NCBI GenBank assembly: GCA_016931515.1
Contig: JAFGEQ010000002.1
Location: 26,278-90,277 of the forward strand
DNA from: a candidate division CSSED10-310 bacterium
Lineage (GTDB): Bacteria > CSSED10-310
Direction: 5' to 3'
Length of the DNA: 64,000 nt
Positions within the stretch are counted from its first letter, which is position 1. Every line of letters begins with the position of its first letter. Made by a program: the position numbers and the translations under genes. Positions 24,665 to 46,917 of this stretch are shown one piece after another. The notes beneath the pieces are model-generated. The model ran no database searches. It was not told where the DNA came from and saw nothing but the letters and a program-made list of their open reading frames with translations.

Positions 24665-25498
24665 ATGAAGAATGATCCAGCTAACAGTCCACTAGTTGTT
24701 CCCCGCAAAAGCGGCAAAATCGTCAGTTTTACATCCCTGTTCAGTGGGTGGATCCTGGCGTATTCCGATATTCACCATGGATTGATTCTTCCATTTCAGA
24801 GGGTTGATGACAGGCTGAAATCCCTGGCAATATTGGTCTCCAGTATCGGCCTGACCTGGTTTATCTATGTTCCGATCCATGAATTGCTGCACGTCGGCGG
24901 ATGTGTAATCACAGGGGGAACCGTATCTGAGTTAATATTGGGACGTGAATATGGAGCTGATTTACTGAGGCATATTTTCCCATTTATAACGCCCATAACA
25001 ACGCAATACGCCGGCCGCGTAACCGGATTTCAACCGAATGGCGATATTGGGTACCTCGTTACAGTCTTTGCGCCTTTCATCCTCACCGTTTTTCCGGGAG
25101 TCTGGTTCATCGGTAAAGCGTTACAAACCGCAAAGATTTGGTTTTGGGGTCCCGGTATTGTGATGGGATTAGCATCTTTCTATAACTTGACTGGTGACTT
25201 TTTCGAGATCGGCACCATTTTCTCCACACGCTTGCTGGACTTTGTCTCCCTAGGCTTCTCGTCAGAGGTCATCCCTTCCTTCTGGGAATTGCGATCGGAT
25301 GATGTTTTCAGGCTCTTCAGTGAAATCGCATCTGCACCTGACGCGTATGGAATGAATCATTTTACCGGCATGTCAATCGTTACAGCAACCATTCTGATTG
25401 GTTTTTTTCTTGCAGTCGTCTGTTCCGGTTTAACCTATCGACTCGGCCGGAGGTTTGCAGGGATTCCTATGATTCAGAAATCAGTTACCGAAAAGTAA
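24665..25498 (+). CDS. Polytopic membrane protein with HExxH motif (possible zincin-like membrane peptidase, DUF3267-like)
   Basis: 277 aa, several TM helices; an HELLH motif sits at a helix boundary (VPIHELLHVGG). Confidence 0.35.
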   Translation: MKNDPANSPLVVPRKSGKIVSFTSLFSGWILAYSDIHHGLILPFQRVDDRLKSLAILVSSIGLTWFIYVPIHELLHVGGCVITGGTVSELILGREYGADLLRHIFPFITPITTQYAGRVTGFQPNGDIGYLVTVFAPFILTVFPGVWFIGKALQTAKIWFWGPGIVMGLASFYNLTGDFFEIGTIFSTRLLDFVSLGFSSEVIPSFWELRSDDVFRLFSEIASAPDAYGMNHFTGMSIVTATILIGFFLAVVCSGLTYRLGRRFAGIPMIQKSVTEK

Positions 25499-32943: not shown

Positions 32944-34734
32944 TCAACCCGGCTTTCCCGCGTAATACAATTGATGCAGACGAGGGTATATCCCATTTTG
33001 TTTCTTCAATAATTCGTCATGAGTTCCAGACTCTGCCAGATGTCCTTTATGGAAGACAAAAATCCTGTCTGCATTGCGAATAGTCGACAAGCGATGTGCC
33101 ACAACCAGTGCCGTCCTGCCTTTTAGAATCTTCTCTGTTGCGATCTGGATGACGGATTCGGTTACAGTGTCTATGTTTGACGTTGCTTCATCAAGAATCA
33201 CAATCTGGGGATTGAAGCTTATTGTACGCATAAATGAGACGAGCTGCTTCTGACCCGCTGATAGTCGCCGGCCTCCTTCACCCACTTCCGTCGCAAACTT
33301 CCTGCTCATCCGGTTGATGAATGTCGCCAAACCGCTCTGTTCCGCAATCCTTTCCAACTCCATATCGGAAATCCCCTGCCGACCGACCCGGATATTGTCT
33401 GCTATTGACCCGTTAAAAATAAACGCGTCCTGGTGAATCAACCCCAAGAATCCCCGAAGCACATTGAGCGGTATTTTTCGGATATCAGTGCCATCCAATC
33501 GGATAACACCCCGGACCGGATCATAAAACCTACATAACAGGTTCGTCAGAGTCGTTTTACCCGCTCCAGTAGCCCCCACAACAGCGATACTCTCTCCAGG
33601 GTGAATCACAAACGAGACATCTTTCATGACCCATTCTTCATTATTATAAGCAAACCAGACATTTTCGAATCGAATTTCCCCGACAATGGTCTCTGGGATT
33701 ACCGCATCATCTTCCAAAGGTTCTGAGACACCGGTCGACATATCCATTACCTGGAATATCCGCTCCGATGAAGCAAGTGCAGATTGGAGAATATTAATCT
33801 GTTGAGACATATCCTGAATCGGGCGGAAAAAACGCCTGGCATATTGAAAAAAGGCAACTAAAACGCCAACAGTGATGCCTCCTCCCTGGATCATAAAACC
33901 GCCATACTTCAAAAGCAGTACGATCGTGATTGCGCTCGTTATCTCCACTGTTGGGACAAAAAGAGCGAAGTAGAATACGGTTTGGAGATGTGCATTGAGT
34001 GTTTCCTGGTTAGCGCGATCGAATTGTTCACGAACTTTTAGATTATTGTTAAACAACTGGATAACATGTATTCCTCGGATATGTTCAGAGAGGAATCCGT
34101 TGAGTGCGGCAACTTTCGTCCGTACCGCTCGAAAACTGTCCCGAAATTTTTTCCTGAACAGGATGACATTCACTGCGAACAGAACCATGCTTAACAGGAC
34201 AAATATAGTGAGTCGGGTATTCAAGGAAAACATAATGACAACGATACCTATCAGTGTCATGGAGTCACCGATAAACTGAACAACACCGGAGGAAAACAGT
34301 TCGTTCAAGGTCTCAATATCTGATGTAAGGCGGGTGATGATCCAGCCTGTTGGAAATTTGTCAAAAAAGCGGATATCCAGCGATTGAATATGTTTAAACA
34401 GAGATTTACGGATATCATTCATGATTGATTGCCCAGTCAATGCCATCGTATAGATCTGGCTGAACATTGCGATAAAACTGCCGAGAATCGTCATCATATA
34501 TATTGCAGTCAATCGTAACAAACCGGAGTAATTCTTGTCTGCGATTGGACCATCGATTGCAGATTTTATAATGTATGGACCGGCGAGTTGAAGAGTGGAA
34601 AACGCCAGAAGACATATGAGAGCAAGGATTACTTGAAGCCAGTAGGGCTTAAGAAATCCGAAAATTCTTCCAGTCGTACTGAGATTGATCGTAAAATTTT
34701 CAGGTATCTCTGCTGCATGGTGCATTCTCGGCAT
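32944..34734 (-). CDS. ABC transporter permease/ATP-binding protein (type I exporter, MsbA-like), second subunit of a heterodimer
   Basis: Track ORF reaches 34776. An ATG at 34734 overlaps the upstream stop as TAATG. Six TM helices are followed by an NBD with Walker A GATGAGKTT, signature LSAGQKQL and Walker B ILDEATS. Confidence 0.8.
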   Translation of the reverse strand: MPRMHHAAEIPENFTINLSTTGRIFGFLKPYWLQVILALICLLAFSTLQLAGPYIIKSAIDGPIADKNYSGLLRLTAIYMMTILGSFIAMFSQIYTMALTGQSIMNDIRKSLFKHIQSLDIRFFDKFPTGWIITRLTSDIETLNELFSSGVVQFIGDSMTLIGIVVIMFSLNTRLTIFVLLSMVLFAVNVILFRKKFRDSFRAVRTKVAALNGFLSEHIRGIHVIQLFNNNLKVREQFDRANQETLNAHLQTVFYFALFVPTVEITSAITIVLLLKYGGFMIQGGGITVGVLVAFFQYARRFFRPIQDMSQQINILQSALASSERIFQVMDMSTGVSEPLEDDAVIPETIVGEIRFENVWFAYNNEEWVMKDVSFVIHPGESIAVVGATGAGKTTLTNLLCRFYDPVRGVIRLDGTDIRKIPLNVLRGFLGLIHQDAFIFNGSIADNIRVGRQGISDMELERIAEQSGLATFINRMSRKFATEVGEGGRRLSAGQKQLVSFMRTISFNPQIVILDEATSNIDTVTESVIQIATEKILKGRTALVVAHRLSTIRNADRIFVFHKGHLAESGTHDELLKKQNGIYPRLHQLYYAGKPG

Positions 34735-36491
34735 TAAAAAGACTCCAATTGAGATAGTAGATCCTGACGCCGGCAAAGGTCCGCATAATATCCATTCGCA
34801 GCAACCAGTGTGTCATGATCACCATCTTCGCTAATCCCGCCGTCCTCCAAAATTAAAATCCGGTCAGCTCGCCGTGCTGTATTCATTCTGTGGGAAATGA
34901 TAATCGTCGTCTTCTTTCCTTTAATTTGTAGAAGCTTATTAAGGATTGCCTCTTCAGTCGCTATGTCAACGCTTGAAAACGGATCATCCAGAAGAAGGAG
35001 ATCTGAGTCGCGAAGGAGCATTCGAGCAAGTGTCAGGCGTTGCTTCTGACCCCCCGATAAATTTATCCCCCGTTCACCGAGGTGTGTCTCCAACTGATCC
35101 GGGAATTCCATGAATTCCTGGTCCAAATTCGCGATCTCAAGCGCATTCATAAGAACGGTCGGATCTGACGATCTGGCTCCGAAAAACAGATTGTTGGCAA
35201 TCGAGTCAGAAAAAACAACGATGTTTTGCGGCATTATTCCAACATATTCTCGAATAGGATATTCCGGTAACGAATCGGTTGGATATCCATTAATTGATAC
35301 TGTCCCTGAAGTGGGAAGGTAGCTTCGTGTGATCAGATTCATGAGGGTTGTTTTTCCTGATCCCGATGCTCCCATGACTGCCACTGTTTCCCCCTGTTTG
35401 ATTGAAAAATTGGTTTTTTCCAGAACATAGGGTTGATCAGGACAGTATTTGAAGCAGACATCTTTGAACTCGATATCACCTCTGAACTGATGAACAGGAA
35501 TGTAATCATCCCCCGGCAGCATACCCAGGCATGGTTTTTCTTCAAAGATTGACTGGATTCTTTGCATGGCAGCAGATCCCTGCTGAATCAGACCGACAAC
35601 CCAGCCGACAGCAAAGAGAGGCCATGAGAGGATTGCCAGGTATTCAAGAAAGGCAACCATACTCCCAATGGTAATCCGTCCGGAGATAACCCACCATCCA
35701 CAGAAGAGCAGAATGACGCTCGTAGAAATGCCTGTAAGAAGTGTCATCAGCGGCGTAAACAAACCCTGGAAGCGAACCAGATTTAAATTTTTCCGGACAT
35801 AATTGTCACTCATCGCGTTTAACTTCTCGCATTCCACTGATTCAAGGTTATAGGCCTTAACAATCCGAATCCCGGTCAGATTTTCCTGTACACAGGATGT
35901 GATTTCAGCAAGCTGCTCCTGAACCTGTTCGGAGTGGAATCGGATCTTCCTGCCCATGAAGTAAAACATGACCGGCATCAAAGGAAGAGGGATTAAGGAC
36001 AGCAGTGTCAGCCGGATATCGATGACCAGCATAAAACTCAATGCAAAAATCAAGGAAACGATAGTGTTTCCTATTTGCATCAACGCAGGACCCAATATCA
36101 TTCGAACTCGGAGAATATCATTAGTCATCCTTGATAGGATGTCACCGCTTGAAACACGATCATAATAGGATCGGGGCAGTATTAGAACATGCTCAAAAAT
36201 CTTCTGTCTCAAGTCTCCTTCAACATGCCGGCTGACACCAATAATCAACCATCTCATGAGAAATCGAAATATGCAGACACTGATGGTTACACTCAGAATG
36301 GCCAGAATATACAGTCCGATTCTGGCTTTAAAATGGTCACTGCCCAAATCATCAACTGCCATCTTCATAATCCACGGCTGGATCATCATCAGACTCGAGG
36401 AGCAGAGGAGGCAGAGCAATCCCAACGTGAGTGTTTTAGAATAAGGTTTCCAGTAAGGTGCCAGTATGTTATGAAGGCGTTTTAATGTCAT
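34734..36491 (-). CDS. ABC transporter permease/ATP-binding protein (type I exporter), first subunit of a heterodimer
   Basis: 585 aa; TMD then NBD with Walker A GASGSGKTT, signature LSGGQKQR and Walker B LLLDDPFSS. Confidence 0.8.
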   Translation of the reverse strand: MTLKRLHNILAPYWKPYSKTLTLGLLCLLCSSSLMMIQPWIMKMAVDDLGSDHFKARIGLYILAILSVTISVCIFRFLMRWLIIGVSRHVEGDLRQKIFEHVLILPRSYYDRVSSGDILSRMTNDILRVRMILGPALMQIGNTIVSLIFALSFMLVIDIRLTLLSLIPLPLMPVMFYFMGRKIRFHSEQVQEQLAEITSCVQENLTGIRIVKAYNLESVECEKLNAMSDNYVRKNLNLVRFQGLFTPLMTLLTGISTSVILLFCGWWVISGRITIGSMVAFLEYLAILSWPLFAVGWVVGLIQQGSAAMQRIQSIFEEKPCLGMLPGDDYIPVHQFRGDIEFKDVCFKYCPDQPYVLEKTNFSIKQGETVAVMGASGSGKTTLMNLITRSYLPTSGTVSINGYPTDSLPEYPIREYVGIMPQNIVVFSDSIANNLFFGARSSDPTVLMNALEIANLDQEFMEFPDQLETHLGERGINLSGGQKQRLTLARMLLRDSDLLLLDDPFSSVDIATEEAILNKLLQIKGKKTTIIISHRMNTARRADRILILEDGGISEDGDHDTLVAANGYYADLCRRQDLLSQLESF

Positions 36492-36640
36492 TCTCGAAGT
36501 CGTGGTTGATCTGATCGGAAATGATCAGGGGACGAAGTATAAAAGAATTTCTCCTTTTTCTCAAATTGACCAGATGACATACAGGTTGTTTTGGGTGTGG
36601 AGATTGTTCGATACGGTTTCACAAACAATGACAAACGCTG

Positions 36641-36675
36641 TTACATTTTATTTCAAGATTTTTACATTTTGTAAA
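36641..36675. promoter_or_regulatory. Direct repeat TTACATTTT (x2, 21 bp apart) with embedded palindrome TTTACA-ttt-TGTAAA in the divergent promoter region upstream of the 1711-aa regulator gene
   Basis: Read directly in the 235-bp intergenic region between the ABC exporter (-) and the giant gene (+); the two-helical-turn spacing suggests a dimeric regulator site. Confidence 0.3.
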
Positions 36676-36725
36676 ATTTTCTGGTATTCCTGTTAGGAAT
36701 TTCGTAAAATATCCGGTGGAAAAAG

Positions 36726-39700
36726 TTGGATTATCAGGCAAATCCAAACCAAAGGGATAACACGATGCATTTACCAAAAGAGTTACACGAAACCTACTCA
36801 ATTAGTGACGATCTGGGTGAAGATAGTCTGGGTAAATTATTAAGAGTAAAAAATAAAAGCAACGACACCATGCATCTCATGCGACTGATGCGAATATCAG
36901 GAAATGACCGGTTATTATCAGCTGAAATGAATTCCGACCTGGCACTATGGGCTGATCTCCATTATCATAGTGTCTCGTTTATCCGGGAGTTCTTGGATAT
37001 AAATGATTCTCACATTGCAGTAATTATGGATAACCGCCCCGGCATCAGACTAAGCACGGTGTGGAATGACATGCTACGCAAGGTTTCTGATGCAGATACA
37101 TTTATTCAAGAAATCGGTTCCGGGATTGAGTACATGCATCTGAATGGCATACGGCATTTATTCGTAAACCCGGACACGATACTTATCGACACAAGGGACG
37201 GCTCACGAGCTTTCTATCTGACCGATTGCGGACTGCTTGAGTTTCTTGAATGGACCACCCGATTTAATCTTCCAAAACCTGATGATTTTCCGGCTCTTGA
37301 ATTCATGAGCCCTGAGTTTGTTTCAGGGGAGCGATCAGATCTCAGAAGCGATCTCTACTCGTTCGGTACGGTCATATATCAACTTCTCACTGGTATCAAT
37401 CCGTTTCAATCAGACACTGCTACAGCAACAATTTCGGCTCATCTGAACCGGTTGATTAACCAACCCAAAGATTTAAACAGCGAAATCTCCGATAAATTGA
37501 ATATGTCAGTCATGAAGCTTCTCGAGAAAAACCCCGGATATCGACCCAGTAGTCTGATTAAGCATTTCGGTATTACATTTGAATCTGATGACTCTCAGGA
37601 AGTGCATTATTCCCTCTTGAATTCCTATTCTATTGATCATCCGCTTCCATTACAGGAGATCCGTTCAGCATTCGAAAAAGCATGCAATGGATCAGGGAGT
37701 GTTCTGGTGCTTGTTGGCGATACCGGGATCGGAAAAAGTCGTCTGCTGGAGGGAGTTGAATCTGAATTTCGGCTTTCAGGCGTAAACCCGATAATTATAC
37801 AGGCTTTCCCCAATTCGGATACTGAATGCGGATGCGGTGTCCTACGATCCGTTTTCAAAGCATTACACCATTTTTATCCAAAGCTGGAACCGGACGTCAT
37901 CGATCAGATGTATCCTCCTGATTTTGAAAAAAACTATCTTCAAATCTCAGATGCACTCTTTCAAGAGGCTGTTTTGCAGAGCTGTGCCAGACATATTTTG
38001 AAAGCTATTTTCGACAGGATTCAAGGAGATCAAGCGGTTCCTTGTGTTGTGATTCTCAAAGACTGCTTTTTCTCGGACAGTATTTTCTGGGGGTTTTTCC
38101 GCACGCTGGCACGACTGTTATCTGAGAAGGCCATTGGAAATGTTCCTTGTCTTTGGCTTGTCGAGACCCGGGATATTGAATCCGGTTTCATTAGAGTAAA
38201 AGGCAATGACGCCATTAAGCCGATTGAACTGGTTACATGTAATCGAGAAACCGTAATTAAAATCCTGGCTTCAGGTTTTGGTTTGGAATCAGTTCCAGAG
38301 ATGTTGACTGATTGGGTGATGGAGTTATCTGAAGGGAATTTCCAGACCATTGATCAGATGATAACAATGCTGCGTTACACCGGCATCCTTTCCCTGAAAG
38401 ATGATATCTATACAATAAACGATAATACATGGCATACGGTAAGAACTCATTGCAAAGATCTGAATCAGTTTACAGATTATGTAATCGATCATTACATGAC
38501 TCCTCCCATGCGTCTCGTTCTGACCCATTTATCTTTATGGCCGCATGGATGCTCACTGATCAATTTATCCCTGACAATGGACCTGGACACCTCAACCCGT
38601 AAGTTTTTTCATTGGTTGCTTTTTTCCGAATGGGTACGGAAGACAAGAGTGGAAGGGTCGTTCATCTACAAGATTCGATATCCTGTTCTACAGGAACGAT
38701 TTCTCAGAGCAACACCCGATTACCAGAAATCCAGATGGCATCAACGAATTGCCGATCAACTGTGTGACCGGCAGGGAGCTCTATCAACCATAGTCGCTGA
38801 GCATTATTTCAGCGCCGATAATCGTCTCCATGGATGCGAACATGCTTTGTCGGCTGCGATGCATTATCGTGACCGGCAATGTCTGGAAAAATCCCGGTTC
38901 TGGTTCACACGGATCCTTGAGAGCATGCCCGAGCGCAATCGAACTAAAATAACCCAGATAAGCTTTGAATATGCCAAGGTCTTGATAGCCGACAAGGACT
39001 TTTCCAAAGCACACGTGACGCTGTCTCAGGCGGAATCATTCCTCGAGTCACGATTCCATCATAAACGCGACAAAGCAGATTACCTCCTCCTTCGCGGCAT
39101 ATGCAGCTTCCATCTTGAAGATAACAATCAGGCTGTTTCATTCTTACTGGATGCTCTGAAAATGTTACCTCGAACAACTGCTCATGAATACCGGCTGAAG
39201 ATTCTTTTCTTTTTGGCACAAATTTGCGAAAAACTAAATGATTTTGAAGGACTTATCGTCCATTTCACAAATCTTCAGAAGTTACTTCCGCTGCGGAATT
39301 ATCCTTTTTTCGCAGGTCGACTTTTGGGTATTGTTGAACGGGCGTACCAGGAACTGCAGCAATACACAACCGCAGAATTTTACTTGAAAGAATCGATTCT
39401 TTTCGGCGAAACCACTGGTGATCATATATTTTTGTTAAACCAAAACCTTCGTTTGGGCCAGATTTATGAGCGGACAGGAAAATATCGTCTGGCAAGTGAA
39501 TCTTACGACCGCGTGATAAGACTGAGTAGAAAATACGTTCATTCTCGGTTGTTATGTGATGGCTTATGCCATCTGGCCAATCTGCACATGCTGTACAGTC
39601 AACAGGAACTTGCCCAAGGATTGCTGGCTGAAGCACTTCAATTATCTGAGAAGCTAAATGAACAACGTCTCTATGTCTGGAGCAGCTTTTTGCTATCCTC

Positions 39701-41861
39701 CGTTTTTATTCAGAAGGGTTTGCTTGATGAAGCGAATAGTATTCTGAGTGCTTTGATACCGGGAACCCTTGTTGGAATCGAGATAACGCTGATAGGAAGA
39801 ATCTACCTGAACAAAGCTAGAATTGCAGAACGCAGGGGACAATTTTACCTGATGCTTCAACTGTTCACTGAGCTATTGAGTCAAGTACGGATCCAGAATC
39901 AAAGAATACTTACAGCTTTTTCACACCTGTATATCGCTCGCGTACACACACTTCTTGAGCAGTTGCCGCAAGCAAAATCAGCACTCGGCGAAGCCCGGAA
40001 AATTTTAGATAACTCTGACCTGTCTATTCCGGACTGCAACATCCTCGAAGCCACTATATATCTCATGCAGCACAATCCGAAAAAAGCCAGGAAATTGGCT
40101 ATGGAAGCCATAGATCAATCGAAAGAGAAGAACCTCATTCATCAACAGGCGGAAGCATCTCGGGTTTTGGGATTAATTGACCAGGCGGAAAATAATCAGG
40201 AAGGTGCGATCCTTCATTTTCAGACTGCACTGGCTTATTTTATATCTGATCAGGAGGAGTTTGAAGCGGCTCATATTCACCGTTTATTAGCGAAGGCTTA
40301 TTCTTTTTTATCCAAGCATGACCTTGCGAAGCAGGAAGACCAAGCTGCAGATGCCTTATTCAAAAAGTTATCTGCTTTCTACTATCTATCCGGTGATGCT
40401 GGTACGGAAAGCCCTCGACAAGAGAACGAACATCCGGATGTTATTGCTTCAATTTCTTCCGGCCTAGTCGTTCATCTCCTTCAATCCCTGTATTCGTTTG
40501 AAGCAGCTTGCAGTGCGATTCTTCATATCGTCTTACAGAGCGGTGGTTTTGATCAGGGCGCTGTCTTTCAGACCGGAAGCGGATCTGCCAATCTGTCTTT
40601 GATCGCTGACATATCAATGACAGCAGATGATCAGAAAACAGCACAAAAGCTTTGTAAAGCATGGATTCAAGAGTGTAACACTATACTGCCGGTATGTCGG
40701 ATGGAAGACAGTGCTTTGTTTCCGGATCAAGCTTCCGTGACGCAGGTGTGTTACTTGCCTGTTTTGATGGATAAATCTCTCGTGGCCATCATGTTTCTGA
40801 CGAGCAGGGATCCGATTCTTAAAAAGCGAGTTCGCTTATTCTCGGAACTTATTTCTATCGCATTCGAGATTATTCGAGACTTGGAAACAGCTCATATCAA
40901 TATAGATCACGAGGTGCCGGAGTCCAGAGTTCATTCATCAAAGCTGGTCGCAGAATCTGCTGAGATGAGCAGGATTAAAGTGGCACTTTATTCAATCGCA
41001 GCCTCCAAACTGCCTGTGCTGATCACAGGAGAAAGTGGTACTGGAAAGTCATTTCTTGCAGAATATATTCATAGGATAGCTTATCAAGGCAGGACAGCAC
41101 CAGCAGTAATTCAATGCAGTACGCTCAATTCTTCTTCCAAATCACAGGCACTTACCAGTGTGATAGATGGCATGCTTGCGACGGGATTTTCGACAACAAT
41201 AACCAGTAAAACCGTTATCATTGAAGATATTGATTTATTATCCTTAACGCAGCAGATGGAGCTGATTCCTATCTTACAACCCGATAGACGATATCCACTG
41301 CTACAGACAAATTTGCGATTTATTTTCACTACTGCCTGCAACATCAGGCAGTCCGTCCAGGAGAGCTCATTTTCCGAAGAGCTTTATCGACTGATCGCGG
41401 AAATTCAACTTAAAATGCCGAATCTTGCGAGCCGAAAAGAGGATATTCCTCAATTAGCCAGGGTATTCTTAGAAGAAGCCGTCGAATTAACACATAAAAA
41501 GTTTACATATTTTCATCCCGACACCCTGGATGCGTTGATGTCATATCCGTGGCCGGCTAATGTGATCGAGTTAAAGCATGCCCTTGAGACGGCGGTGCTT
41601 TTTGGTACACCTCCGGAGATCCATGTTCGGGATTTACCCAAAGAGATTCGATCTTACCTTGAGCGAGCTGGCATAATGGGTATTGATACACCGGTTTTGC
41701 GAAGTATTGAAGATATTGAAGAAGCGCACATTCGATCGATTCTTCATGGCACAAAGGGCAACAAGTTGCGAGCTTGCGAATTACTGGGAATTTCCAGACC
41801 CACGCTGGATCGAAAACTAGAAAAATTTGGCATCATCATTTCGAAAAAAAGGAAACGCTGA
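36726..41861 (+). CDS. Giant multi-domain regulator: degenerate Ser/Thr-kinase-like domain, P-loop (STAND/AAA-like) NTPase, TPR-like repeats, GAF-like domain, sigma-54-interaction AAA+ domain and C-terminal Fis-type HTH
   Basis: 1711 aa. The track start is a TTG; an alternative ATG lies 13 codons in. Kinase-fold motifs in residues ~20-285: catalytic loop IRHLFVNPDTILID, DCG in place of DFG, MSPE in place of APE, subdomain IX SDLYSFGTVIYQLLTG. P-loop VLVLVGDTGIGKSRLLEGV at ~aa 326. Sigma-54 AAA+ domain from ~aa 1400: Walker A GESGTGKS, second region of homology RFIFTT, SRKEDIP, WPANVIELKHALE. C-terminal HTH LRACELLGISRPTLDRKLEKFGI. Confidence 0.8.
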   Translation: MDYQANPNQRDNTMHLPKELHETYSISDDLGEDSLGKLLRVKNKSNDTMHLMRLMRISGNDRLLSAEMNSDLALWADLHYHSVSFIREFLDINDSHIAVIMDNRPGIRLSTVWNDMLRKVSDADTFIQEIGSGIEYMHLNGIRHLFVNPDTILIDTRDGSRAFYLTDCGLLEFLEWTTRFNLPKPDDFPALEFMSPEFVSGERSDLRSDLYSFGTVIYQLLTGINPFQSDTATATISAHLNRLINQPKDLNSEISDKLNMSVMKLLEKNPGYRPSSLIKHFGITFESDDSQEVHYSLLNSYSIDHPLPLQEIRSAFEKACNGSGSVLVLVGDTGIGKSRLLEGVESEFRLSGVNPIIIQAFPNSDTECGCGVLRSVFKALHHFYPKLEPDVIDQMYPPDFEKNYLQISDALFQEAVLQSCARHILKAIFDRIQGDQAVPCVVILKDCFFSDSIFWGFFRTLARLLSEKAIGNVPCLWLVETRDIESGFIRVKGNDAIKPIELVTCNRETVIKILASGFGLESVPEMLTDWVMELSEGNFQTIDQMITMLRYTGILSLKDDIYTINDNTWHTVRTHCKDLNQFTDYVIDHYMTPPMRLVLTHLSLWPHGCSLINLSLTMDLDTSTRKFFHWLLFSEWVRKTRVEGSFIYKIRYPVLQERFLRATPDYQKSRWHQRIADQLCDRQGALSTIVAEHYFSADNRLHGCEHALSAAMHYRDRQCLEKSRFWFTRILESMPERNRTKITQISFEYAKVLIADKDFSKAHVTLSQAESFLESRFHHKRDKADYLLLRGICSFHLEDNNQAVSFLLDALKMLPRTTAHEYRLKILFFLAQICEKLNDFEGLIVHFTNLQKLLPLRNYPFFAGRLLGIVERAYQELQQYTTAEFYLKESILFGETTGDHIFLLNQNLRLGQIYERTGKYRLASESYDRVIRLSRKYVHSRLLCDGLCHLANLHMLYSQQELAQGLLAEALQLSEKLNEQRLYVWSSFLLSSVFIQKGLLDEANSILSALIPGTLVGIEITLIGRIYLNKARIAERRGQFYLMLQLFTELLSQVRIQNQRILTAFSHLYIARVHTLLEQLPQAKSALGEARKILDNSDLSIPDCNILEATIYLMQHNPKKARKLAMEAIDQSKEKNLIHQQAEASRVLGLIDQAENNQEGAILHFQTALAYFISDQEEFEAAHIHRLLAKAYSFLSKHDLAKQEDQAADALFKKLSAFYYLSGDAGTESPRQENEHPDVIASISSGLVVHLLQSLYSFEAACSAILHIVLQSGGFDQGAVFQTGSGSANLSLIADISMTADDQKTAQKLCKAWIQECNTILPVCRMEDSALFPDQASVTQVCYLPVLMDKSLVAIMFLTSRDPILKKRVRLFSELISIAFEIIRDLETAHINIDHEVPESRVHSSKLVAESAEMSRIKVALYSIAASKLPVLITGESGTGKSFLAEYIHRIAYQGRTAPAVIQCSTLNSSSKSQALTSVIDGMLATGFSTTITSKTVIIEDIDLLSLTQQMELIPILQPDRRYPLLQTNLRFIFTTACNIRQSVQESSFSEELYRLIAEIQLKMPNLASRKEDIPQLARVFLEEAVELTHKKFTYFHPDTLDALMSYPWPANVIELKHALETAVLFGTPPEIHVRDLPKEIRSYLERAGIMGIDTPVLRSIEDIEEAHIRSILHGTKGNKLRACELLGISRPTLDRKLEKFGIIISKKRKR

Positions 41862-41936
41862 TTCCTTGACGTTTTGGAGAGCAAGACCTATGATCGTGAG
41901 GGATAGTGGTAGTGAGACCTGGTGGGACATAGATCA

Positions 41937-42776
41937 ATGAAAGTCACAGCATATGGGGCAACCGATTTGGGGATGCGGCGACCTGTTAATGAGGACAGTT
42001 TCCGGCTTTGTCCTGCTGTCCAGCTTTTCCTTGTGGCAGATGGGATGGGAGGCCACGCTGCTGGTCATGTGGCAAGCCGTATGGCGGTGAACGAAGTTGC
42101 GGAATTTATTGAATCGCACCTTTTGGGTGGAACTGATGATCGGGACGATGATTCGGATTATACTCAAATTCTAGTTGAGGCACTTCAAGCTGCCAATCAG
42201 TATATTATTACCGCAACACATCACCGAAAAGATCTCCGGGGAATGGGAACAACTCTAGTTGTAGTCTTGATTCGAGGAAGAAAACTATATGCTGCCAGTG
42301 TCGGAGACAGCCGGCTGTATTTAATTCGCCAGGAAGAAGTGAAACTGCTCACAACCGATCACTCGTGGGTTAATATGCAGGTGCAACTGGGCAATATGAC
42401 GTCGGAGGAATCACGGCTTCACCCGATGAGAAATGTAATCACTCGAGCGTTGGGAACACAATTACAGGTAGAAGTCGATACTCTTGTTCAGTTGCTCGAG
42501 GCGGGTGACTGCTTGGTTATGTGTACCGATGGTTTAAGCAATATGTTGAGTGATAAAGAGATTGCACTGAGTGTACTTCATCATGAGACTGATTTGAAGC
42601 AAGCAGTGGAAGAATTAATCCAACGTGCAAACATGCGGGGTGGGGATGACAATATCACCACTGTCGTTTTGAAAATCCAGGATGATATTGAATCCAATGA
42701 GCATTACGCTCAAGATACTGAAGTTATGTTTATACGTCCTATCAAACCCGGGAAAAACTCAACGGAACAGGATTGA
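41937..42776 (+). CDS. PP2C-family Ser/Thr protein phosphatase (Stp1/PrpC-like)
   Basis: Track ORF 41922..42776 with the likely ATG at ~41937 (MKVTAYGATDLGMRRPVNEDSF); metal-binding motifs LVADGMGGHAAG and DGLSNMLSD, and a DDNITTVV-like C-terminal block. Confidence 0.8.
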   Translation: MKVTAYGATDLGMRRPVNEDSFRLCPAVQLFLVADGMGGHAAGHVASRMAVNEVAEFIESHLLGGTDDRDDDSDYTQILVEALQAANQYIITATHHRKDLRGMGTTLVVVLIRGRKLYAASVGDSRLYLIRQEEVKLLTTDHSWVNMQVQLGNMTSEESRLHPMRNVITRALGTQLQVEVDTLVQLLEAGDCLVMCTDGLSNMLSDKEIALSVLHHETDLKQAVEELIQRANMRGGDDNITTVVLKIQDDIESNEHYAQDTEVMFIRPIKPGKNSTEQD

Positions 42777-43720
42777 TAATGATACGTTACCTTGTCACCG
42801 GAGCTGCCGGATTTATCGGTTCGCATCTGGTTGAATCACTTCTGACTTTACCGAATACCGAAATTATTGCGATTGATAATCTTATCACGGGCAATCTGAA
42901 CAATTTGAAACATCTGTTAAATCGCATTCATTTCATTCAAGACGATATCACCCATCCGGATGTTTTAAAGGAACTGATGGAGAACATTGATTTCGTCCTG
43001 CATCAGGCAGCTCTTCCATCCGTTCCACGATCCATTTCAGATCCTGATGCATGTAACAGACATAACATTACCGGAACTTTGCAAGTATTAATCGCAGCTC
43101 GTGATGCCAGGGTCAAGCGAGTCATATTTGCGTCATCTTCATCAGTCTATGGCTCAGATATCACTCTGCCTAAGCATGAATCGCTACCAACAATTCCCAA
43201 ATCACCCTATGCGTTAACAAAACTAACTGGAGAGCATTACTGCAGAATCTTTTATGAAGCCTATGGGCTTGAAACTGTTGCATTACGTTACTTCAATGTC
43301 TTTGGACCTCGGCAAAATGTGGCCTCGCAGTATTCCGCCGTCATCCCTCAGTTTATTTCGCATTTGCTTGCCGGAACTCCACCGGAAATCCATGGAGATG
43401 GAACACAATCTCGCGATTTCACATATATATCGAATATTGTTATGGCGAATCTGCAGGCGTGTACGGCGCCCGGGATAGCTGGCCAGGTGTTCAATGTCGG
43501 TTGTGGTTCGCATATTTCAATCAATGATCTTTATTCGATTATTGCCGATGAGATTGGCTCAGATCTGGAACCAATATATACACCACCCAGGATCGGAGAC
43601 GTCCGACATTCCTGCGCGGATATTACGAAAGCCCGCAATTTGATTGGATATGATCCAAGCGTAAGTGTTCGTGAAGGCTTGGCAATAACTGTCGATCATT
43701 ATGCAAACGTGTTCCGATAA
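42773..43720 (+). CDS. NAD-dependent epimerase/dehydratase (UDP-hexose or UDP-GlcNAc 4-epimerase, WbpP/Gne-like)
   Basis: 315 aa; Rossmann motif VTGAAGFIGSHLVESLL; catalytic YxxxK (YALTK); ATGA overlap with the PP2C stop. Confidence 0.75.
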   Translation: MIMIRYLVTGAAGFIGSHLVESLLTLPNTEIIAIDNLITGNLNNLKHLLNRIHFIQDDITHPDVLKELMENIDFVLHQAALPSVPRSISDPDACNRHNITGTLQVLIAARDARVKRVIFASSSSVYGSDITLPKHESLPTIPKSPYALTKLTGEHYCRIFYEAYGLETVALRYFNVFGPRQNVASQYSAVIPQFISHLLAGTPPEIHGDGTQSRDFTYISNIVMANLQACTAPGIAGQVFNVGCGSHISINDLYSIIADEIGSDLEPIYTPPRIGDVRHSCADITKARNLIGYDPSVSVREGLAITVDHYANVFR

Positions 43721-43725
43721 AGAGA

Positions 43726-45984
43726 ATGAGATCGAACTATCGATTTTTATATTTTGCTCCCTTACTGATCTGCATAATATTCAATGGATGCAGTGTCGAT
43801 CAGAGTGGGCAGGAAACGCAACCTGCGATTCGAGATTTAGTGGAGTCTTTTGATCCGTCCTGGTTGAACAGTGACCGGGAACGTTTTGTTTTCCACGATT
43901 TTCTGAATAAAAAACACCATTTGGGCAGCGGTTGGGAATTCGACGAAAACCAGGCCGAAACGCGTTTCCCCTGGCCTAGATTCACAATGGCCAGTGGCAT
44001 AATAGTATTGGATTGGAATCACCGAATGGAGCGTCGAATTACATTAAAACTGCTCAACATTGCATCAGATTACCCACCAGATATCATCGGCTTAAGCGTT
44101 AATGGCCAGGCTGTTCCTCTTATGGAAGATCACCTGCCATGCGGTGAATATGAGTTTTATGTTCCCTCATCCGTCCAAAAAACCGGGATCAATGAACTTC
44201 ATGTCAGTTTGAATCGTGACCGACTACCGCCTGATTTTGATATTCATTCGATTGGTTTGCACTCCATTCGTATTACGCTGGGAGCGGTTGTAAGAAATTC
44301 GATTCAAATAGGTGACCAAGTTCGAAGCAGTTTGCTTTTTGCTCCTCCGGTTGGGTTACGAATTCCCTATCAATCTGCCAAAAAACAGAATTTGCAATTC
44401 AGTTATGGATTATTCTCCTCTAACGAAAACAAGAACAAGTTTGTCTACTCATTAGAAGTGGCAATTTTTGAAAAAAATGGAGATCGTCCCGTTCTCGAAA
44501 GACGATTCCCTATCATTCGCAATCAGGAAACTTGTAGCAATTGGCAATTTGTAAAACAAAAGCTGCCCGTTATGGCAGATCAGGGAATACTGGAAATTAC
44601 ATTCTCTGCCGACGAGGAAATTACCGGACCAATCGATTATCTGGCACTCAGTGAAATTCTCATCGTTCCTGCGAATCAGAAAGGGGATCATGATACCAAT
44701 CTGATTCAACCCGATATCATATTGACAACACTCTCATCCGTGGCAGCCAGACAGTTAGGATCTTACGGTAACGCTTGTGCCAGAACACCGTTTTTAGATC
44801 GTTTTTCCCAACATGGATTAATTTTTATCGACGTCACATCAGCAAGCAACGGCGAAGTTCCCTCATTGTTATCAATTGCGACTGGAAAGTTGCCTCGCGA
44901 TCATGGCGCTTACCGAACTAATTCAATTACGAAGGATTTTCCATATATATTTGGAGATTTATTGACTGAGACGGATTATCAAAGTCACGCATTCGCGTTT
45001 ACAAATTCCGCAACCCAATCTGTTCTCTCTCGTCTTCCCGGTTTTAAACGCGTGTATTTCTCAAATCCCTCAAAGGATAGTCTGCAGAGCATCCGCGCGC
45101 AGTTAAACAGCATGCTGACATCACCCCACATCATTGCCCAACCTGGTTTTTTCTGGTTTCATTTCGCTCCCGAGACAGTCACCCCTGGGATGATAGATGG
45201 CATGTTCGACCTGACTGTATATAATAAAAACCATTTGCCAATCTCCGATCTGAATATTCCTCTCTCAGAGCAGGATCGTTTGTTCTCTCTTTCCCAAAAA
45301 ATTAACGCCAATGGGGATGTTCGTTCCCTATTAGGAAGCAACGACTATCGGTTGACGAATCTCGACAAAACTGTTTCGTCGGTTGTTCGTGACATAATAG
45401 ACCAACGATCATCAAGAGATGTCTCTATGATTGTTACGTCGGACAGCGGGATCATTCGAAGCTTGAATTCGAACGTTCTATCGAATGATTCTCTATCCCA
45501 GGAAGTTCTCCATGTCCCGTTAATCTGGAACGAGATCAGGAGCAATTCAGATCAGACTGAATACAGAAAGGGGATTGTCTCAACGGCCATAAGTAATCTG
45601 AAAATTTGTGAAATGATGGGGAAGCTCATGCGCAATGGTGATCTTAAAAGCATTTCTTGGAATGGATCTCCAGGATCAACAATCCGACCCATAATCGCCG
45701 AACATGATACACGTCCAATAATTGCATATCGAAAAGAGGAATTTAAGATGATTCACTGCTTGTCAAACCCATATTATCAAATCGCAACCACAAACCTGTT
45801 CAATCTGGATACCGACCCGGGAGAATCCATCAATTTAGCCGGGAGAGACCCTGAGTATACACAGCAATTTCTTGATCCTGTGTTGGCATTCTGCCGTGGA
45901 AGTTCTTTCTATCCGAGCCCACGAATGGGTTTGGAAGAAGAAACTCAAGCTATTCTGCAATCACTTAAATACACCGTCCAATGA
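43726..45984 (+). CDS. Lipoprotein with C-terminal sulfatase-like (alkaline-phosphatase superfamily) domain lacking the canonical CxPxR catalytic motif
   Basis: 752 aa; signal peptide and lipobox (FNGC). The region DIILTTLSSVAARQLGSYGNACARTPFLDRFSQHGLIF...GEVPSLLSIATGKLPRDHG aligns to the sulfatase N-terminal metal-binding and CxPSR...GRYP region, but the Cys/Ser and Arg are replaced. Confidence 0.45.
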   Translation: MRSNYRFLYFAPLLICIIFNGCSVDQSGQETQPAIRDLVESFDPSWLNSDRERFVFHDFLNKKHHLGSGWEFDENQAETRFPWPRFTMASGIIVLDWNHRMERRITLKLLNIASDYPPDIIGLSVNGQAVPLMEDHLPCGEYEFYVPSSVQKTGINELHVSLNRDRLPPDFDIHSIGLHSIRITLGAVVRNSIQIGDQVRSSLLFAPPVGLRIPYQSAKKQNLQFSYGLFSSNENKNKFVYSLEVAIFEKNGDRPVLERRFPIIRNQETCSNWQFVKQKLPVMADQGILEITFSADEEITGPIDYLALSEILIVPANQKGDHDTNLIQPDIILTTLSSVAARQLGSYGNACARTPFLDRFSQHGLIFIDVTSASNGEVPSLLSIATGKLPRDHGAYRTNSITKDFPYIFGDLLTETDYQSHAFAFTNSATQSVLSRLPGFKRVYFSNPSKDSLQSIRAQLNSMLTSPHIIAQPGFFWFHFAPETVTPGMIDGMFDLTVYNKNHLPISDLNIPLSEQDRLFSLSQKINANGDVRSLLGSNDYRLTNLDKTVSSVVRDIIDQRSSRDVSMIVTSDSGIIRSLNSNVLSNDSLSQEVLHVPLIWNEIRSNSDQTEYRKGIVSTAISNLKICEMMGKLMRNGDLKSISWNGSPGSTIRPIIAEHDTRPIIAYRKEEFKMIHCLSNPYYQIATTNLFNLDTDPGESINLAGRDPEYTQQFLDPVLAFCRGSSFYPSPRMGLEEETQAILQSLKYTVQ

Positions 45985-46147: not shown

Positions 46148-46426
46148 ATGCACGACCAATTAACTGTAACTCAAGTCGGGTTTGTTTTTTTGTGTTTTTC
46201 GATAATCGCTTTTACAGCGTATATGAGGATTCTAATGTATCTCAACGCATTGGATGCCGGATTGGAAAATCCACCTGAAAGACCACACATGGGAGAAAAG
46301 CTACAGGCGTATAAAGCTTTCTGTGCGGAACGTGGGCGAAGACCCGTATTACTTTATATTTTCGCTGTTGGTGCGATCGGGGCGGTAATTTTCTGGCTGC
46401 CACTTCCGTGGTTGCTACTTCGATAA
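46148..46426 (+). CDS. Small two-TM membrane protein (hypothetical)
   Basis: 92 aa with two hydrophobic helices; ends 6 nt before the FHA gene start, so co-transcription is plausible. Confidence 0.3.
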   Translation: MHDQLTVTQVGFVFLCFSIIAFTAYMRILMYLNALDAGLENPPERPHMGEKLQAYKAFCAERGRRPVLLYIFAVGAIGAVIFWLPLPWLLLR

Positions 46427-46431
46427 AAATA

Positions 46432-46902
46432 ATGAATTTATCAGAAAAAGGCACACCGGTTCTTGAAGTTTACGATAGAGATACTCTGCTCGCTCGCATC
46501 CCGTTCATTCAGAAAGGCAAAAACTATCGCCTGGGAAGAGATCCATCGAATGATCTTGTGATTAGTCACGAACAGGTATCGCGATTTCATCTGTCGATAT
46601 ATCGCGGTTGGGATGATGTTCTTACGATCAGGGACACGGGTAGCCGGAATGGAGTCATTTTGAATGGGAAGCGTGTCTCCGGCCCATTTGAAGTCAGATC
46701 TGACGATGACATCCGGATTGGTCAATTAAAATGCTTGATAAAAGGAATCAAAACAAACCCGATACATTGTTTGCAGGAAAATGCCCTTCATTCATCAGAA
46801 AAGTCAGACAGAATCCCGTATTGTAAAAATCCTATTATATTATTAATCATAAGTGGCTTGTTTTTGGTCTCAACCATTGTGTTGATTGTGTCGTTAATCT
46901 AG
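46432..46902 (+). CDS. FHA-domain protein with C-terminal transmembrane anchor
   Basis: Track ORF 46408..46902 (GTG) with an ATG at ~46432. FHA core YRLGRDPSNDLVISHEQVSRFHLSIY...RDTGSRNGVILNGKRV; C-terminal helix ILLIISGLFLVSTIVLIVSLI. Confidence 0.7.
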   Translation: MNLSEKGTPVLEVYDRDTLLARIPFIQKGKNYRLGRDPSNDLVISHEQVSRFHLSIYRGWDDVLTIRDTGSRNGVILNGKRVSGPFEVRSDDDIRIGQLKCLIKGIKTNPIHCLQENALHSSEKSDRIPYCKNPIILLIISGLFLVSTIVLIVSLI

Positions 46903-46917
46903 CCTTTATCAGCTGGA

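Follow-up and report, generated by a model that had tools for sequence, protein, structure and literature searches.

A probable pseudokinase at the head of a STAND regulator whose kinase, GAF-like, and sigma-54 modules appear to have decayed together

The large regulator described here is encoded within a 64,000-nucleotide (64 kb) stretch of DNA, hereafter referred to as the window. It is in all likelihood a MalT/PknK-like STAND regulator that is headed by a PknB-like pseudokinase and in which the kinase, GAF, and AAA+ modules have decayed together. Because the HRD aspartate, the lysine of the catalytic loop, the Mg-binding asparagine, and the ATP-anchoring lysine are all replaced, phosphotransfer should be impossible, and we infer that this activity has been lost from the domain. 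A preliminary description had favored a non-catalytic scaffold or sensor over an active kinase, and the motif mapping, the predicted fold, and the comparison of orthologues all agree with that assessment.

The regulator gene extends from 36765 to 41861 on the + strand, which also carries all other features given coordinates below, and it encodes 1,698 residues as judged by the ORF translation, the Pfam matches, and database protein P0045. Possible start codons are a TTG at 36726 and an ATG at 36765, the latter of which agrees with the orthologues and with the identical P0045 (1,698 residues). Residue numbers are thus counted from the ATG, and those of the preliminary description, counted from the TTG, are higher by 13. 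According to Pfam, the order of domains is kinase-like, STAND ATPase, TPR, GAF-like, sigma-54 AAA+, and Fis-type HTH, and the full-length orthologues contain 1,696-1,727 residues. The P-loop of the STAND (AAA_16) NTPase, GDTGIGKS (37716-37739), is invariant throughout the family. The AAA_16 match itself, delineated by residues 296-341, scores 49.9 bits against a cut-off of 32.6, and it is followed by MalT-like TPR/TPR_12 repeats (39360-40007; Pfam TPR_12 and TPR_MalT). The STAND module is not regarded as dead; its Walker B motif is odd across the family, canonical members included, and the alignment register in that region is uncertain. A strongly diverged GAF-like region (40305-40919) occupies the same position as the Pfam GAF match in orthologue P0051. 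In a Kyte-Doolittle scan one 19-residue window reached 1.85, namely residues 993-1011 (ILSALIPGTLVGIEITLIG). This stretch lies within the TPR array and contains both glutamate and proline, which makes a membrane helix improbable.

The N-terminal ∼270 residues are predicted to form a genuine Hanks fold. A kinase-like domain had been placed at 36780-37580, and the Pfam Pkinase match (PF00069), delineated by residues 11-262 (36795-37550), fits well within those limits. The score of this match, 74 bits, clears the cut-off of 31.7 (E-value 1.6e-20), and the match covers positions 1-253 of the 263 in the profile. The AlphaFold model (pLDDT 84.3, pTM 0.84) displays a bilobal kinase architecture, with β3, αC, αE, β7, and β8 in canonical order. 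A Foldseek search of the PDB with this model returned PknB, DAPK, and Stk1 as its top matches, with E-values down to 5.7e-19 and TM-scores of 0.64-0.75 when normalized to the query and 0.71-0.82 when normalized to the target. The residues that hold the fold together, namely His 125, Pro 136, Gly 156, Pro 183, Glu 184, Asp 196, and Arg 260, are invariant in the family.

The register of the catalytic motifs was established by four concordant alignments, one with phmmer against titin kinase and three with MAFFT, which included PKA and PknB, 43 homologues, and the orthologues, respectively. Structural positions were assigned from the secondary-structure register of the model together with these alignments rather than by three-dimensional superposition. 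The glycine-rich loop is degenerate and reads G18-E-D20-S-L-G23 (36816-36833), and throughout clade B, the clade of the window, each sequence covering the domain has an aspartate in place of the second (middle) glycine of GxGxxG. The VAIK lysine position, which lies within β3 (residues 36-43), is occupied by Arg 40 (36882-36884), again in all clade B sequences covering the domain. The preliminary description had recognized neither a VAIK lysine nor a glycine-rich loop; the lysine and the middle glycine are indeed lost, but an arginine takes the place of the former and half of the loop survives. The αC glutamate is replaced by Asp 58, which is positioned within αC (residues 46-62). The catalytic loop, located between αE (residues 107-126) and β7 (residues 139-142), retains only a remnant of HRDLKPEN, H131-L-F133-V-N135-P-D137-T138 (37155-37178), in which Phe 133 stands for the HRD aspartate, Asn 135 for the lysine, and Thr 138 for the asparagine. 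At the end of β8 (residues 149-155), D154-C155-G156 (37224-37232) replaces DFG, such that the metal-binding aspartate is kept and the phenylalanine is lost. All of these substitutions in the catalytic loop and the DFG motif had been proposed beforehand and are borne out by the four alignments. Within the activation segment, the SPE version of the APE motif (37308-37316) is retained. Immediately before SPE the P+1 loop has lost its 'GT', and the segment as a whole is unconserved across the clade. Of the positions equivalent to K72, D166, N171, and D184, which had been singled out for checking, only the last, the DFG aspartate, is retained.

To place these changes in context, the 43 nearest homologues from a word-index search were compared. 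The canonical residue is found in 35 of the 43 at the VAIK lysine, in 39 at both the HRD aspartate and the loop lysine, and in 42 at the loop asparagine, and the DFG motif retains its aspartate in 35 and its phenylalanine in 40. Given how common the canonical residues are in this set, the combination in the window represents a marked departure. In one recent survey (10.1101/2025.01.12.632604), a pseudokinase is defined by sequence as a domain missing at least one of the VAIK lysine, the HRD aspartate, and the DFG aspartate. The window domain lacks two of these three residues (lysine to arginine, aspartate to phenylalanine) and has the DFG aspartate, and by its sequence it is thus a pseudokinase. 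Nucleotide could still be bound through Asp 154, Asp 58, and Arg 40.

The sigma-54 activator module has lost its working parts in parallel with the kinase. Pfam identifies Sigma54_activat, Sigma54_activ_2, AAA_lid_14, and HTH_8 in the C-terminal portion of the protein. The degenerate AAA+ domain (40947-41426) was delineated by the Sigma54_activat match and by alignments to NtrC1, ZraR, and the orthologues. Its Walker A motif, GESGTGKS (residues 1422-1429), is kept. The segment encompassing ELFG...GAFTGA is gone, through either deletion or replacement with SVIDGMLA, and shortening has affected the L2 region as well. The Walker B motif reads VIIEDID rather than the canonical LFLDEI, so that DE has become E-D; the sensor I asparagine is an alanine (TTACN versus ATNRD); and the arginine finger is a serine (FSEELYRLI versus FREDLYYRL). 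The Fis-type HTH_8 DNA-binding domain (41706-41828; residues 1648-1688, 39.1 bits) is the best conserved part of the regulator.

The orthologues were found by an exhaustive representative search; a word-index search with residues 1-500 returned only generic kinases of no more than 27% identity and none of the orthologues, nor even the identical P0045. Those from relatives of candidate phylum CSSED10-310 share the gene neighborhood of the window. Wherever the domain is covered, the sequences of clade B share the β3 arginine, a threonine at the position of the loop asparagine, GxDxxG, and the absence of the DFG phenylalanine. HxD is still present in P0047, P0048, L005-L007, and P0054 of this clade, and the HRD aspartate is lost only in the window (phenylalanine) and in its closest relative, L001/P0046 (valine). 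Both kinase and activator are fully canonical in the more distant orthologues P0051 and L011 and in paralogues P0053, L009, and L010; L014, which covers only the C-terminal part of the protein, has a canonical activator module. Several positions vary even between close orthologues: F/V/D at the HRD aspartate, H/F at the histidine, N/K/R at the loop lysine, and C/G/V/T after the DFG aspartate. In two more distant MAGs (group C), the copy linked to the PP2C gene is differently degenerate, and a canonical paralogue is located on another contig. Public databases annotate one of the orthologues simply as 'protein kinase'.

The extent to which constraint has been relaxed can be gauged against the neighboring genes. 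Between the window and L001, identity amounts to 80% for the PP2C phosphatase and 73-76% for the ABC exporters. Within the regulator the values are 86% for the HTH, 37% for the AAA+ domain, 32% for the kinase-like domain, and 27% for the GAF-like region. The same pattern is observed when pairs of equal PP2C/epimerase divergence (∼58-60%) are compared: the canonical pair L004/L011 shows identities of 56, 57, and 71% for kinase, GAF, and AAA+, respectively, versus 34, 15, and 31% for the degenerate pair L002/L003. Within clade B as a whole, the HTH is 70-86% identical, the kinase domain about 30%, and the GAF-like region 15-27%. The kinase, GAF-like, and AAA+ regions are thus under relaxed constraint. 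The kinase-like domain is nevertheless under purifying selection in sister lineages. Two strain pairs from clade B gave dN/dS values of 0.20-0.26 for this domain, as compared with 0.07 for one canonical pair. The clade B pairs represent sister lineages that still contain the HxD aspartate rather than the branch of the window, with 21-37 differing codons and a low divergence that tends to inflate the ratio. A value of ∼0.2 in these strain pairs argues that the domain is constrained and not junk. For the HTH, dN is zero in L003/L006 (six codons), and the second strain pair displays no HTH substitutions.

These data bear directly on whether the kinase-like domain is simply a functionless remnant, drifting neutrally and retained only through the need for the remainder of the protein. 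Such a remnant might be expected from the 32% identity to the closest orthologue versus 73-86% for the neighbors, and from the drift of catalytic-site residues among close relatives. On the other hand, the reading frame is intact in all full-length orthologues, with no frameshifts, stops, or deletions, the AlphaFold bilobal fold is confident, and the structural invariants are kept. In addition, Arg 40, Asp 20, and Thr 138 are fixed in the clade B sequences covering the domain, and the dN/dS values given above are far below 1. Neutral decay is accordingly regarded as unlikely.

That the domain is an atypical yet active kinase, with its catalytic residues moved in the manner of the WNK lysine or with Asp 137 as the base, is considered very unlikely. 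Some so-called pseudokinases do keep weak or non-canonical activity, examples being WNK, CASK, and HER3, and the window domain has kept the DFG aspartate (Asp 154), the αC acid Asp 58, the basic Arg 40, the APE motif, Asp 196, and Arg 260, in addition to experiencing purifying selection in sister lineages. Against this, four catalytic positions and the P+1 GT were lost at once, the sites that a new mechanism would require vary among close orthologues, and the activation segment is unconserved. Asp 137 had been put forward as a possible alternative base (D150 of VNPD in the earlier numbering), but it corresponds to the conserved Glu/Asp of the 'PEN' segment. As this position is glutamate in every relative, canonical or degenerate, Asp 137 is not a relocated catalytic residue. 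Finally, SelO and SidJ, pseudokinase-class proteins with non-canonical activity (PMC12599244), provide bacterial precedents for a different enzymatic activity on the kinase fold (AMPylation or glutamylation, respectively), and the conserved β3 arginine and glycine-loop aspartate could create a new pocket, but this is most improbable given that the active-site sets of SelO and SidJ are fixed whereas close relatives of the window protein vary in the catalytic loop and in the residue that follows the DFG aspartate, and that there is no resemblance in sequence to either protein, the best matches being ordinary Ser/Thr kinases.

The regulator resides in a conserved neighborhood. Directly downstream of it, in the window as in 11 related loci, is a gene for a PP2C phosphatase (41922-42776; PP2C_2 79.4 bits, PP2C 66.9 bits), the metal-binding motifs of which are intact (RRPVNED, ADGMGGH, GDSR, TDGL, and GGDDN). 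It is followed by genes for an NAD-dependent epimerase and a sulfatase-family protein (42773-45984), assigned by profile matches and synteny. The complete block of regulator, PP2C, epimerase, and sulfatase is present in L001-L008 and L012-L014, and nearby in L011. The linkage to PP2C is ancestral, being observed beside canonical kinases also, and is therefore no peculiarity of the dead form. A small FHA protein (46408-46902; Pfam FHA and Yop-YscD_cpl), which has a C-terminal hydrophobic tail, is encoded next to the SctV gene, and its pThr-binding residues are canonical (GR, SRFH, and SRNG). Its gene lies beside that for FHIPEP in L001-L003 and L005-L007, and it travels with the type III secretion genes rather than with the regulator. 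Both the adjacent phosphatase and the nearby FHA protein had been pointed out earlier, and both are present. Their intact motifs imply that Ser/Thr phosphorylation still occurs. No second Hanks kinase was found within the 64 kb window, and it is plausible that the phospho-donor is encoded elsewhere in the genome.

The following history of the locus is proposed. The ancestral protein would have joined an active kinase to a functional sigma-54 activator, with PP2C as its partner. In the clade of the window, the kinase, GAF, and AAA+ modules decayed jointly. That clade has retained the P-loops and the TPR scaffold, along with the Fis-type HTH and the PP2C encoded next to the regulator. The regulator would now be an oligomerizing, DNA-binding protein unable to remodel the sigma-54 polymerase. 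Its probable role is to activate or repress the flanking envelope genes at promoters of the sigma-70 type, the candidate targets being the PP2C-epimerase-sulfatase genes and the divergent pair of ABC exporters. In this scheme the pseudokinase would be a module for docking or allostery, and it might also accept phosphate and be reset by PP2C. When the whole window was searched for sigma-54 promoters (TGGCAC-N5-TTGCA, with up to one mismatch), no site was found. The same search was negative around L004 and L011, the canonical orthologues linked to PP2C, so that the absence of such sites from the window is weak evidence. Sigma-54 sites associated with a regulator gene occur only with the unlinked canonical paralogues L009 and L010, on the downstream side; others fall inside the SctV gene (L003 and L005) or ∼4.3 kb upstream of the regulator gene (L019). 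A scan of 36300-43000 for sigma-70 promoters and terminators showed no enrichment over shuffled sequences.

A single origin of decay for clade B and the group formed by P0052, L012, and L013, which share 'LYRLI' and 'ILKN', was entertained and rejected as the simplest reading, since the GAFTGA deletions differ and different kinase residues are changed. Neighbor-joining trees do not resolve the branching. Given that GAFTGA was removed by a different deletion in each group, conversion of the kinase-activator-PP2C unit into a non-catalytic DNA-binding regulator may have taken place at least twice independently in lineages around CSSED10-310, each time with joint decay of the kinase, GAF, and AAA+ modules beside an intact PP2C, and with the surviving pseudokinase partnering a canonical paralogue; this broader proposal is put forward as a doubtful one. 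If such repeated conversion did occur, the sole purpose of the kinase activity would have been to gate the sigma-54 ATPase. The pseudokinase would then be the partner or phospho-acceptor of a canonical paralogue encoded elsewhere, as two MAGs hold both forms, and the arrangement would constitute a bacterial counterpart to the kinase/pseudokinase pairs of eukaryotes.

Bacterial pseudokinases have been catalogued by sequence, and almost none have been studied experimentally. The locus offers a graded series of positional orthologues, from canonical (P0051 and L011) through HxD-keeping (P0047 and P0048) to fully degraded (the window and P0046), with the neighboring genes as an internal clock for the comparison of rates. 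As such it is well suited for asking why a kinase fold outlives catalysis and whether the kinase and the sigma-54 ATPase are coupled. For the window protein, the labels 'protein kinase' and 'sigma-54-dependent activator' would be equally misleading, as neither activity is likely.

With respect to known systems, Mycobacterium tuberculosis PknK and the MalT/LAL-type STAND regulators combine a kinase or effector, an AAA_16 NTPase, MalT-like TPR repeats, and a DNA-binding end, and the window protein resembles them in its Pfam AAA_16 and TPR_MalT matches. PknK differs in having an active kinase and another DNA-binding output, as opposed to the degenerate sigma-54 module and Fis-type HTH observed here. 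Both the domain order and the length are like those of typical Pkinase-AAA_16-TPR-GAF-Sigma54_activat-HTH_8 regulators of 1,600-1,770 residues, such as MBI4482549.1 from Acidobacteriota, which is annotated as a 'sigma 54-interacting transcriptional regulator'. In these typical proteins, Pkinase scores 137-177, Sigma54_activat 123-243, and GAF 52-70 bits, whereas in the window protein the first two score 74 and 57.8 bits and GAF is absent among the 25 Pfam families listed. In VpsR, TyrR, HupR, and Rhodobacter capsulatus NtrC, all activators of the sigma-54 type, GAFTGA is missing and promoters of other kinds are the targets. The PDB sequence matches include VpsR (7v2b), and the window protein shares with this group an EBP-homologous AAA+ domain devoid of the sigma-54 contact loop and a Fis-type HTH. 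Unlike these proteins, it also lacks the Walker B DE, the sensor I asparagine, and the arginine finger, and it contains ∼1,390 additional N-terminal residues.

The best PDB sequence match is titin kinase (4jnw and 1tki; E-value 1.7e-16), itself reported to be an inactive pseudokinase scaffold (PMC4042850). Titin, however, keeps its catalytic aspartate (HFD) and loop asparagine, and the resemblance reflects a general CAMK-like similarity rather than common ancestry of the dead state. A parallel in architecture is provided by CP1, a bacterial family that comprises Ser/Thr kinases as well as pseudokinases (O'Boyle et al., bioRxiv 10.1101/2025.01.12.632604; PMC12599244). As described in the available text of these two accounts, CP1 proteins join a cytosolic Hanks-type domain to an ATPase of the COG3899 type, and an FhlA-like module (GAF, sigma-54 activator) often comes next. 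Approximately 34-40% of the members lack the VAIK lysine and/or the HRD aspartate, fewer lack the DFG aspartate, the degradation varies by member, and no function is given there as experimentally established. Neither a parallel decay of the sigma-54 module nor a conserved PP2C neighbor is described in that text, and the CP1 proteins cited in it are from cyanobacteria and proteobacteria, whereas the lineage that encodes the window protein is uncultured and lies near CSSED10-310. The likeness, which rests on architecture and on Pfam proxies for COG3899 rather than on the authors' family profile, is nonetheless close: the architecture is the same, the lysine and aspartate are lost, and the DFG aspartate is kept. 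In its predicted domain organization, the window protein thus matches the published CP1 architecture, a kind already catalogued by sequence analysis.

The regulator gene extends from 36765 to 41861 on the plus strand and encodes, from an ATG start, a protein of 1698 residues with the kinase-like domain at its 5' end. The preliminary description had employed an in-frame TTG at 36726, 5' of this codon; the ATG is preferred because a length of 1698 residues agrees with the database copy and with all of the orthologues. Residues are counted here from the ATG, and the earlier numbers are 13 higher. The Pfam profiles delineate a Pkinase domain from residues 11 to 262 (E-value of 1.6e-20, 74 bits versus a cut-off of 31.7), an AAA_16 STAND P-loop at residues ~296 to 341, TPR_12 and MalT-type TPR repeats from 866 to 1081, Sigma54_activ_2 and Sigma54_activat from 1395 to 1554 (40947-41426), an AAA_lid_14 domain, and an HTH_8 motif from 1648 to 1688. 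Proteins with the same architecture typically score 137-177 bits for Pkinase, 123-243 for Sigma54_activat, and 52-70 for GAF, as compared to 74 and 57.8 bits for the first two in the window protein, with GAF absent among the families listed. The NCBIfam profiles for sigma-54 regulators and PknB-type kinases were resembled in part, and every curated cut-off was missed by far. In the STAND NTPase, the Walker B region (38046-38063, residues 428-433) reads VVILKD. Throughout the family, including those members with canonical kinases, it follows hhhh[K/R/E][D/N] rather than the hhhhDD of typical AAA_16 proteins, and in the nearest relatives it is K-N, without an acidic residue.

Four independent alignments of the kinase-like domain, namely a phmmer search against PDB chains (top match titin kinase, E-value of 1.7e-16) and MAFFT alignments with PKA and PknB, with 43 database homologues, and with the orthologues, gave an identical motif register. 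The GxGxxG loop corresponds to G18-E-D20-S-L-G23, the VAIK lysine to Arg 40, the α-C glutamate to Asp 58, HRDLKPEN to H131-L-F133-V-N135-P-D137-T138, DFG to D154-C-G156, and APE to S182-P-E184. The α-F aspartate (Asp 196) and the subdomain XI arginine (Arg 260) are retained. Among the 43 homologues the canonical residue is found in 35 for the lysine, 39 for both the HRD aspartate and the loop lysine, 42 for the asparagine, 35 for the DFG aspartate, and 40 for the DFG phenylalanine. The model predicted by AlphaFold from the 43-homologue alignment is confident (pLDDT of 84.3, pTM of 0.84) and displays strands and helices in the canonical kinase order, with Arg 40 in β3, Asp 58 in αC, the HLF segment between αE and β7, and Asp 154 at the end of β8. 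The best Foldseek matches in the PDB were PknB, S. aureus Stk1, and DAPK, with E-values down to 5.7e-19 and target-normalised TM-scores of 0.71-0.82.

The domain thus appears to be a kinase fold devoid of phosphotransfer chemistry, and meaningful protein kinase activity is very probably absent. The pseudokinase call of the preliminary description agrees with the missing phosphotransfer residues and the fold, and its substitutions (HRD Asp to Phe, loop Lys to Asn, Asn to Thr, DFG Phe to Cys) are all correct. It had also noted no VAIK lysine or glycine-rich loop; the lysine is indeed missing, but an arginine occupies its position and the loop is half retained.

On the basis of its motifs, the AAA+ domain appears to be as degenerate as the kinase domain. 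When aligned to the NtrC1 and ZraR structures, SVIDGMLA lies at the GAFTGA site, VIIEDID replaces the Walker B hhhhDE, the sensor I asparagine is an alanine, and the first arginine finger is a serine. Walker A, the lid, and the Fis-type HTH are retained. Contact with, or remodelling of, the sigma-54 holoenzyme cannot be expected of such a domain, and the protein probably does not act as a sigma-54 activator. No rpoN gene is present within the 64 kb window.

A word-index search for homologues returned nothing above 27% identity. An exhaustive search revealed a small family whose full-length members have 1696-1727 residues (39% identity for P0046, 37% for P0047, 33% for P0048, 28% for P0051, 25% for P0052, and 24% for P0053), and further loci came from a scan of species-representative genomes. 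Two of these are labelled "candidate division CSSED10-310", a phylum that is rare, has no cultured member, and is known through MAGs from Zodletone Spring (PMC8248873). In loci L001-L003 and L005-L007, on other MAG contigs, genes for ETF, an Fe-S/CCG protein, a TPR protein, two divergent ABC exporters, and the regulator are followed by those for PP2C, an epimerase, a sulfatase, a small ORF, FHA, and SctV. The shorter regulator-PP2C-epimerase-sulfatase core occurs also in L004, L008, and L012-L014, and nearby in L011. Given this shared gene order, the loci are positional orthologues. The exporter genes (32944-36491, minus strand; Pfam ABC_membrane and ABC_tran in the L001 orthologues, on which their identity rests) diverge from the regulator across a 273-bp gap, 36492-36764, a candidate regulatory region; this arrangement is common to L001, L003, and L006. 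One orthologue in the P0048 cluster, MGB4099835.1, is publicly annotated as "protein kinase", a label that appears to overstate what the sequence supports, and fragments of the gene as "helix-turn-helix domain-containing protein". Neither name would convey the degenerate catalytic motifs.

The motif tables sort the family into three states. The canonical members, comprising PP2C-linked orthologues (P0051/L004, L011) and unlinked paralogues (P0053, L009, L010), display GxGxxG, A[VM]K, HxDLKPEN, and DFG in the kinase and ELFG...GAFTDA, Walker B DE, ATN, and FRED..YYRL in the activator; L014, represented by its C-terminal part only, has a canonical activator module. Clade B contains the window protein, L001/P0046, L002/P0047, L003/P0048, L005-L008, and P0054. 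All of its sequences that span the kinase domain have the β3 arginine, GxDxxG, and "PET" or "PDT" for PEN, and lack the DFG phenylalanine; all that span the activator have an eight-residue deletion removing GAFTGA, a shortened L2 region, and neither Walker B DE nor the arginine finger. In group C (P0052/L012, L013) there is a β3 valine and NAG for DFG, with HxD and PEN retained, and the activator carries a separate two-residue deletion within GAFTGA and a Walker A Lys to Arg change. The different deletions argue that clade B and group C decayed independently. Two sets of sequences, the combined PP2C and epimerase and the non-enzymatic regulator parts, gave neighbor-joining trees that each recover clade B as a single group and do not resolve how group C and the canonical orthologues branch. 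Most of clade B retains the HxD aspartate (HWDIRPET, HLDIRPET). It is missing only from the window protein (HLFVNPDT) and its closest relative, L001/P0046 (YFGVLKPET), which places the window protein at the most degraded end of the clade.

A near-consensus sigma-54 promoter, TGGCACAGCGATCGCA, lies on the plus strand at position 6408 of L009 and 15423 of L010. In both MAGs the canonical paralogue that is not linked to PP2C lies ~300 bp upstream of it, and the site could be a target promoter of the active regulator form. No match to TGGCAC-N5-TTGCA with one mismatch or fewer was found in the 64 kb window; this contrast is suggestive only, since L004 and L011 have no such site either.

Neighboring genes served as a clock for divergence. 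Between the window and L001, identities are 80% for PP2C, 78% for the Fe-S protein, 73-76% for the ABC exporters, and 68% for the epimerase, as compared to 32% for the kinase, 27% for the GAF-like, 37% for the AAA+, and 86% for the HTH regions of the regulator. At matched neighbor divergence (PP2C and epimerase ~58-60%), the canonical pair L004/L011 shows 56% (kinase), 57% (GAF), 71% (AAA+), and 65% (HTH) identity, and the degenerate pair L002/L003 34, 15, 31, and 62%, respectively. At 40305-40919, the site of the orthologues' GAF, no GAF is among the families listed; this GAF-like region carries an insertion versus the canonical relatives, and shows only 15-27% identity within clade B. In every lineage the regulator reading frame is unbroken and its length constant, and structural invariants are retained. 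Nei-Gojobori dN/dS values for two close clade B strain pairs, which are sister lineages still with HxD and outside the window's own branch, are 0.20 and 0.26 for the kinase-like domain (37 and 21 differing codons) versus 0.07 for the canonical pair L009/L010; the clade B counts are small, and low-divergence pairs inflate dN/dS. The corresponding values are 0.21-0.30 versus 0.06 for the GAF or GAF-like region, 0.54 (10 codons; second pair unchanged) versus 0.04 for AAA+, and 0 (six codons; second pair unchanged) versus 0.15 for the lid and HTH. Constraint on the kinase-like domain is relaxed yet present, and the domain is not drifting freely.

The PP2C gene (41922-42776) encodes all of the metal-binding motifs and lies 3' of the regulator in both canonical and degenerate lineages. 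The pairing, being present with both kinds of kinase, is ancestral, and PP2C appears to have outlasted the kinase activity of its neighbor. The FHA protein (46408-46902) retains the canonical pThr-binding residues and ends in a hydrophobic tail. Its gene adjoins that for SctV/FHIPEP (46918-48984), followed by those for a class II-like TPR chaperone (48990-49496), a 204-residue protein without a Pfam match (49524-50138), and an SctU/FlhB-family protein (50257-51336), all four on the minus strand; FHA is grouped with these type III secretion genes, separate from the regulator. The order of this group (46408-51336) is kept across related MAG contigs. That PP2C and FHA are both intact implies that Ser/Thr phosphorylation is still present in this organism, which supports the earlier proposal of a phospho-donor encoded elsewhere, a plausible one; no second Hanks kinase occurs within the 64 kb window. 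The MAGs CALFER01 (L012, L010) and CAYYMM01 (L013, L009) each contain two giant-regulator paralogues, the degenerate copy beside the PP2C-epimerase-sulfatase block and the canonical one on another contig. For the clade B MAGs, whose assemblies are possibly incomplete, the genome scan returned no canonical paralogue.

Elsewhere in the window, ORFs at 5848-7536 (minus strand, 562 residues), 10154-11281 (plus, 375), 24665-25498 (plus, 277), and 59735-60430 (minus, 231) match no Pfam family at E ≤ 1e-5. The glycine cleavage P-protein subunit ORFs, 40-1407 and 1287-2897 (plus strand), overlap by ~120 nt as listed, and the start codon of the second probably lies further 3'.

The window protein joins a kinase fold lacking phosphotransfer residues, a STAND P-loop, TPR repeats, a decayed GAF, and a decayed sigma-54 AAA+ domain to a strongly conserved Fis-type HTH. 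In the most likely reading, it would be a DNA-binding regulator that oligomerises in a signal-dependent manner and no longer exerts its output via sigma-54. The pseudokinase could serve as a docking or allosteric module, perhaps as a phospho-acceptor reset by PP2C, and the flanking envelope genes would be likely targets. Taken whole, this specific picture is tentative, its chances being slightly under even.

VpsR, TyrR, and HupR are relatives of sigma-54 activators that lack GAFTGA, so that this kind of regulator is already known. The window protein would act in a like manner, and VpsR is among the PDB alignment matches. According to a bacterial Ser/Thr kinase atlas (10.1101/2025.01.12.632604) and a review (PMC12599244), the kinase domain of the CP1 family is always attached to a COG3899 ATPase and often to an FhlA-like or PAS module; the VAIK lysine is missing from 34% of the members, the HRD aspartate from 37%, and the DFG aspartate from 17%, and no experimental function is reported for the family. 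Both the architecture and the partial, member-specific residue loss match the window protein, which is assigned to CP1 by architecture only. The decay of three modules in parallel, the retention of PP2C, and the graded series of orthologues may be new; the pseudokinase itself appears to be correctly identified as belonging to a class that is known, though purely bioinformatic.
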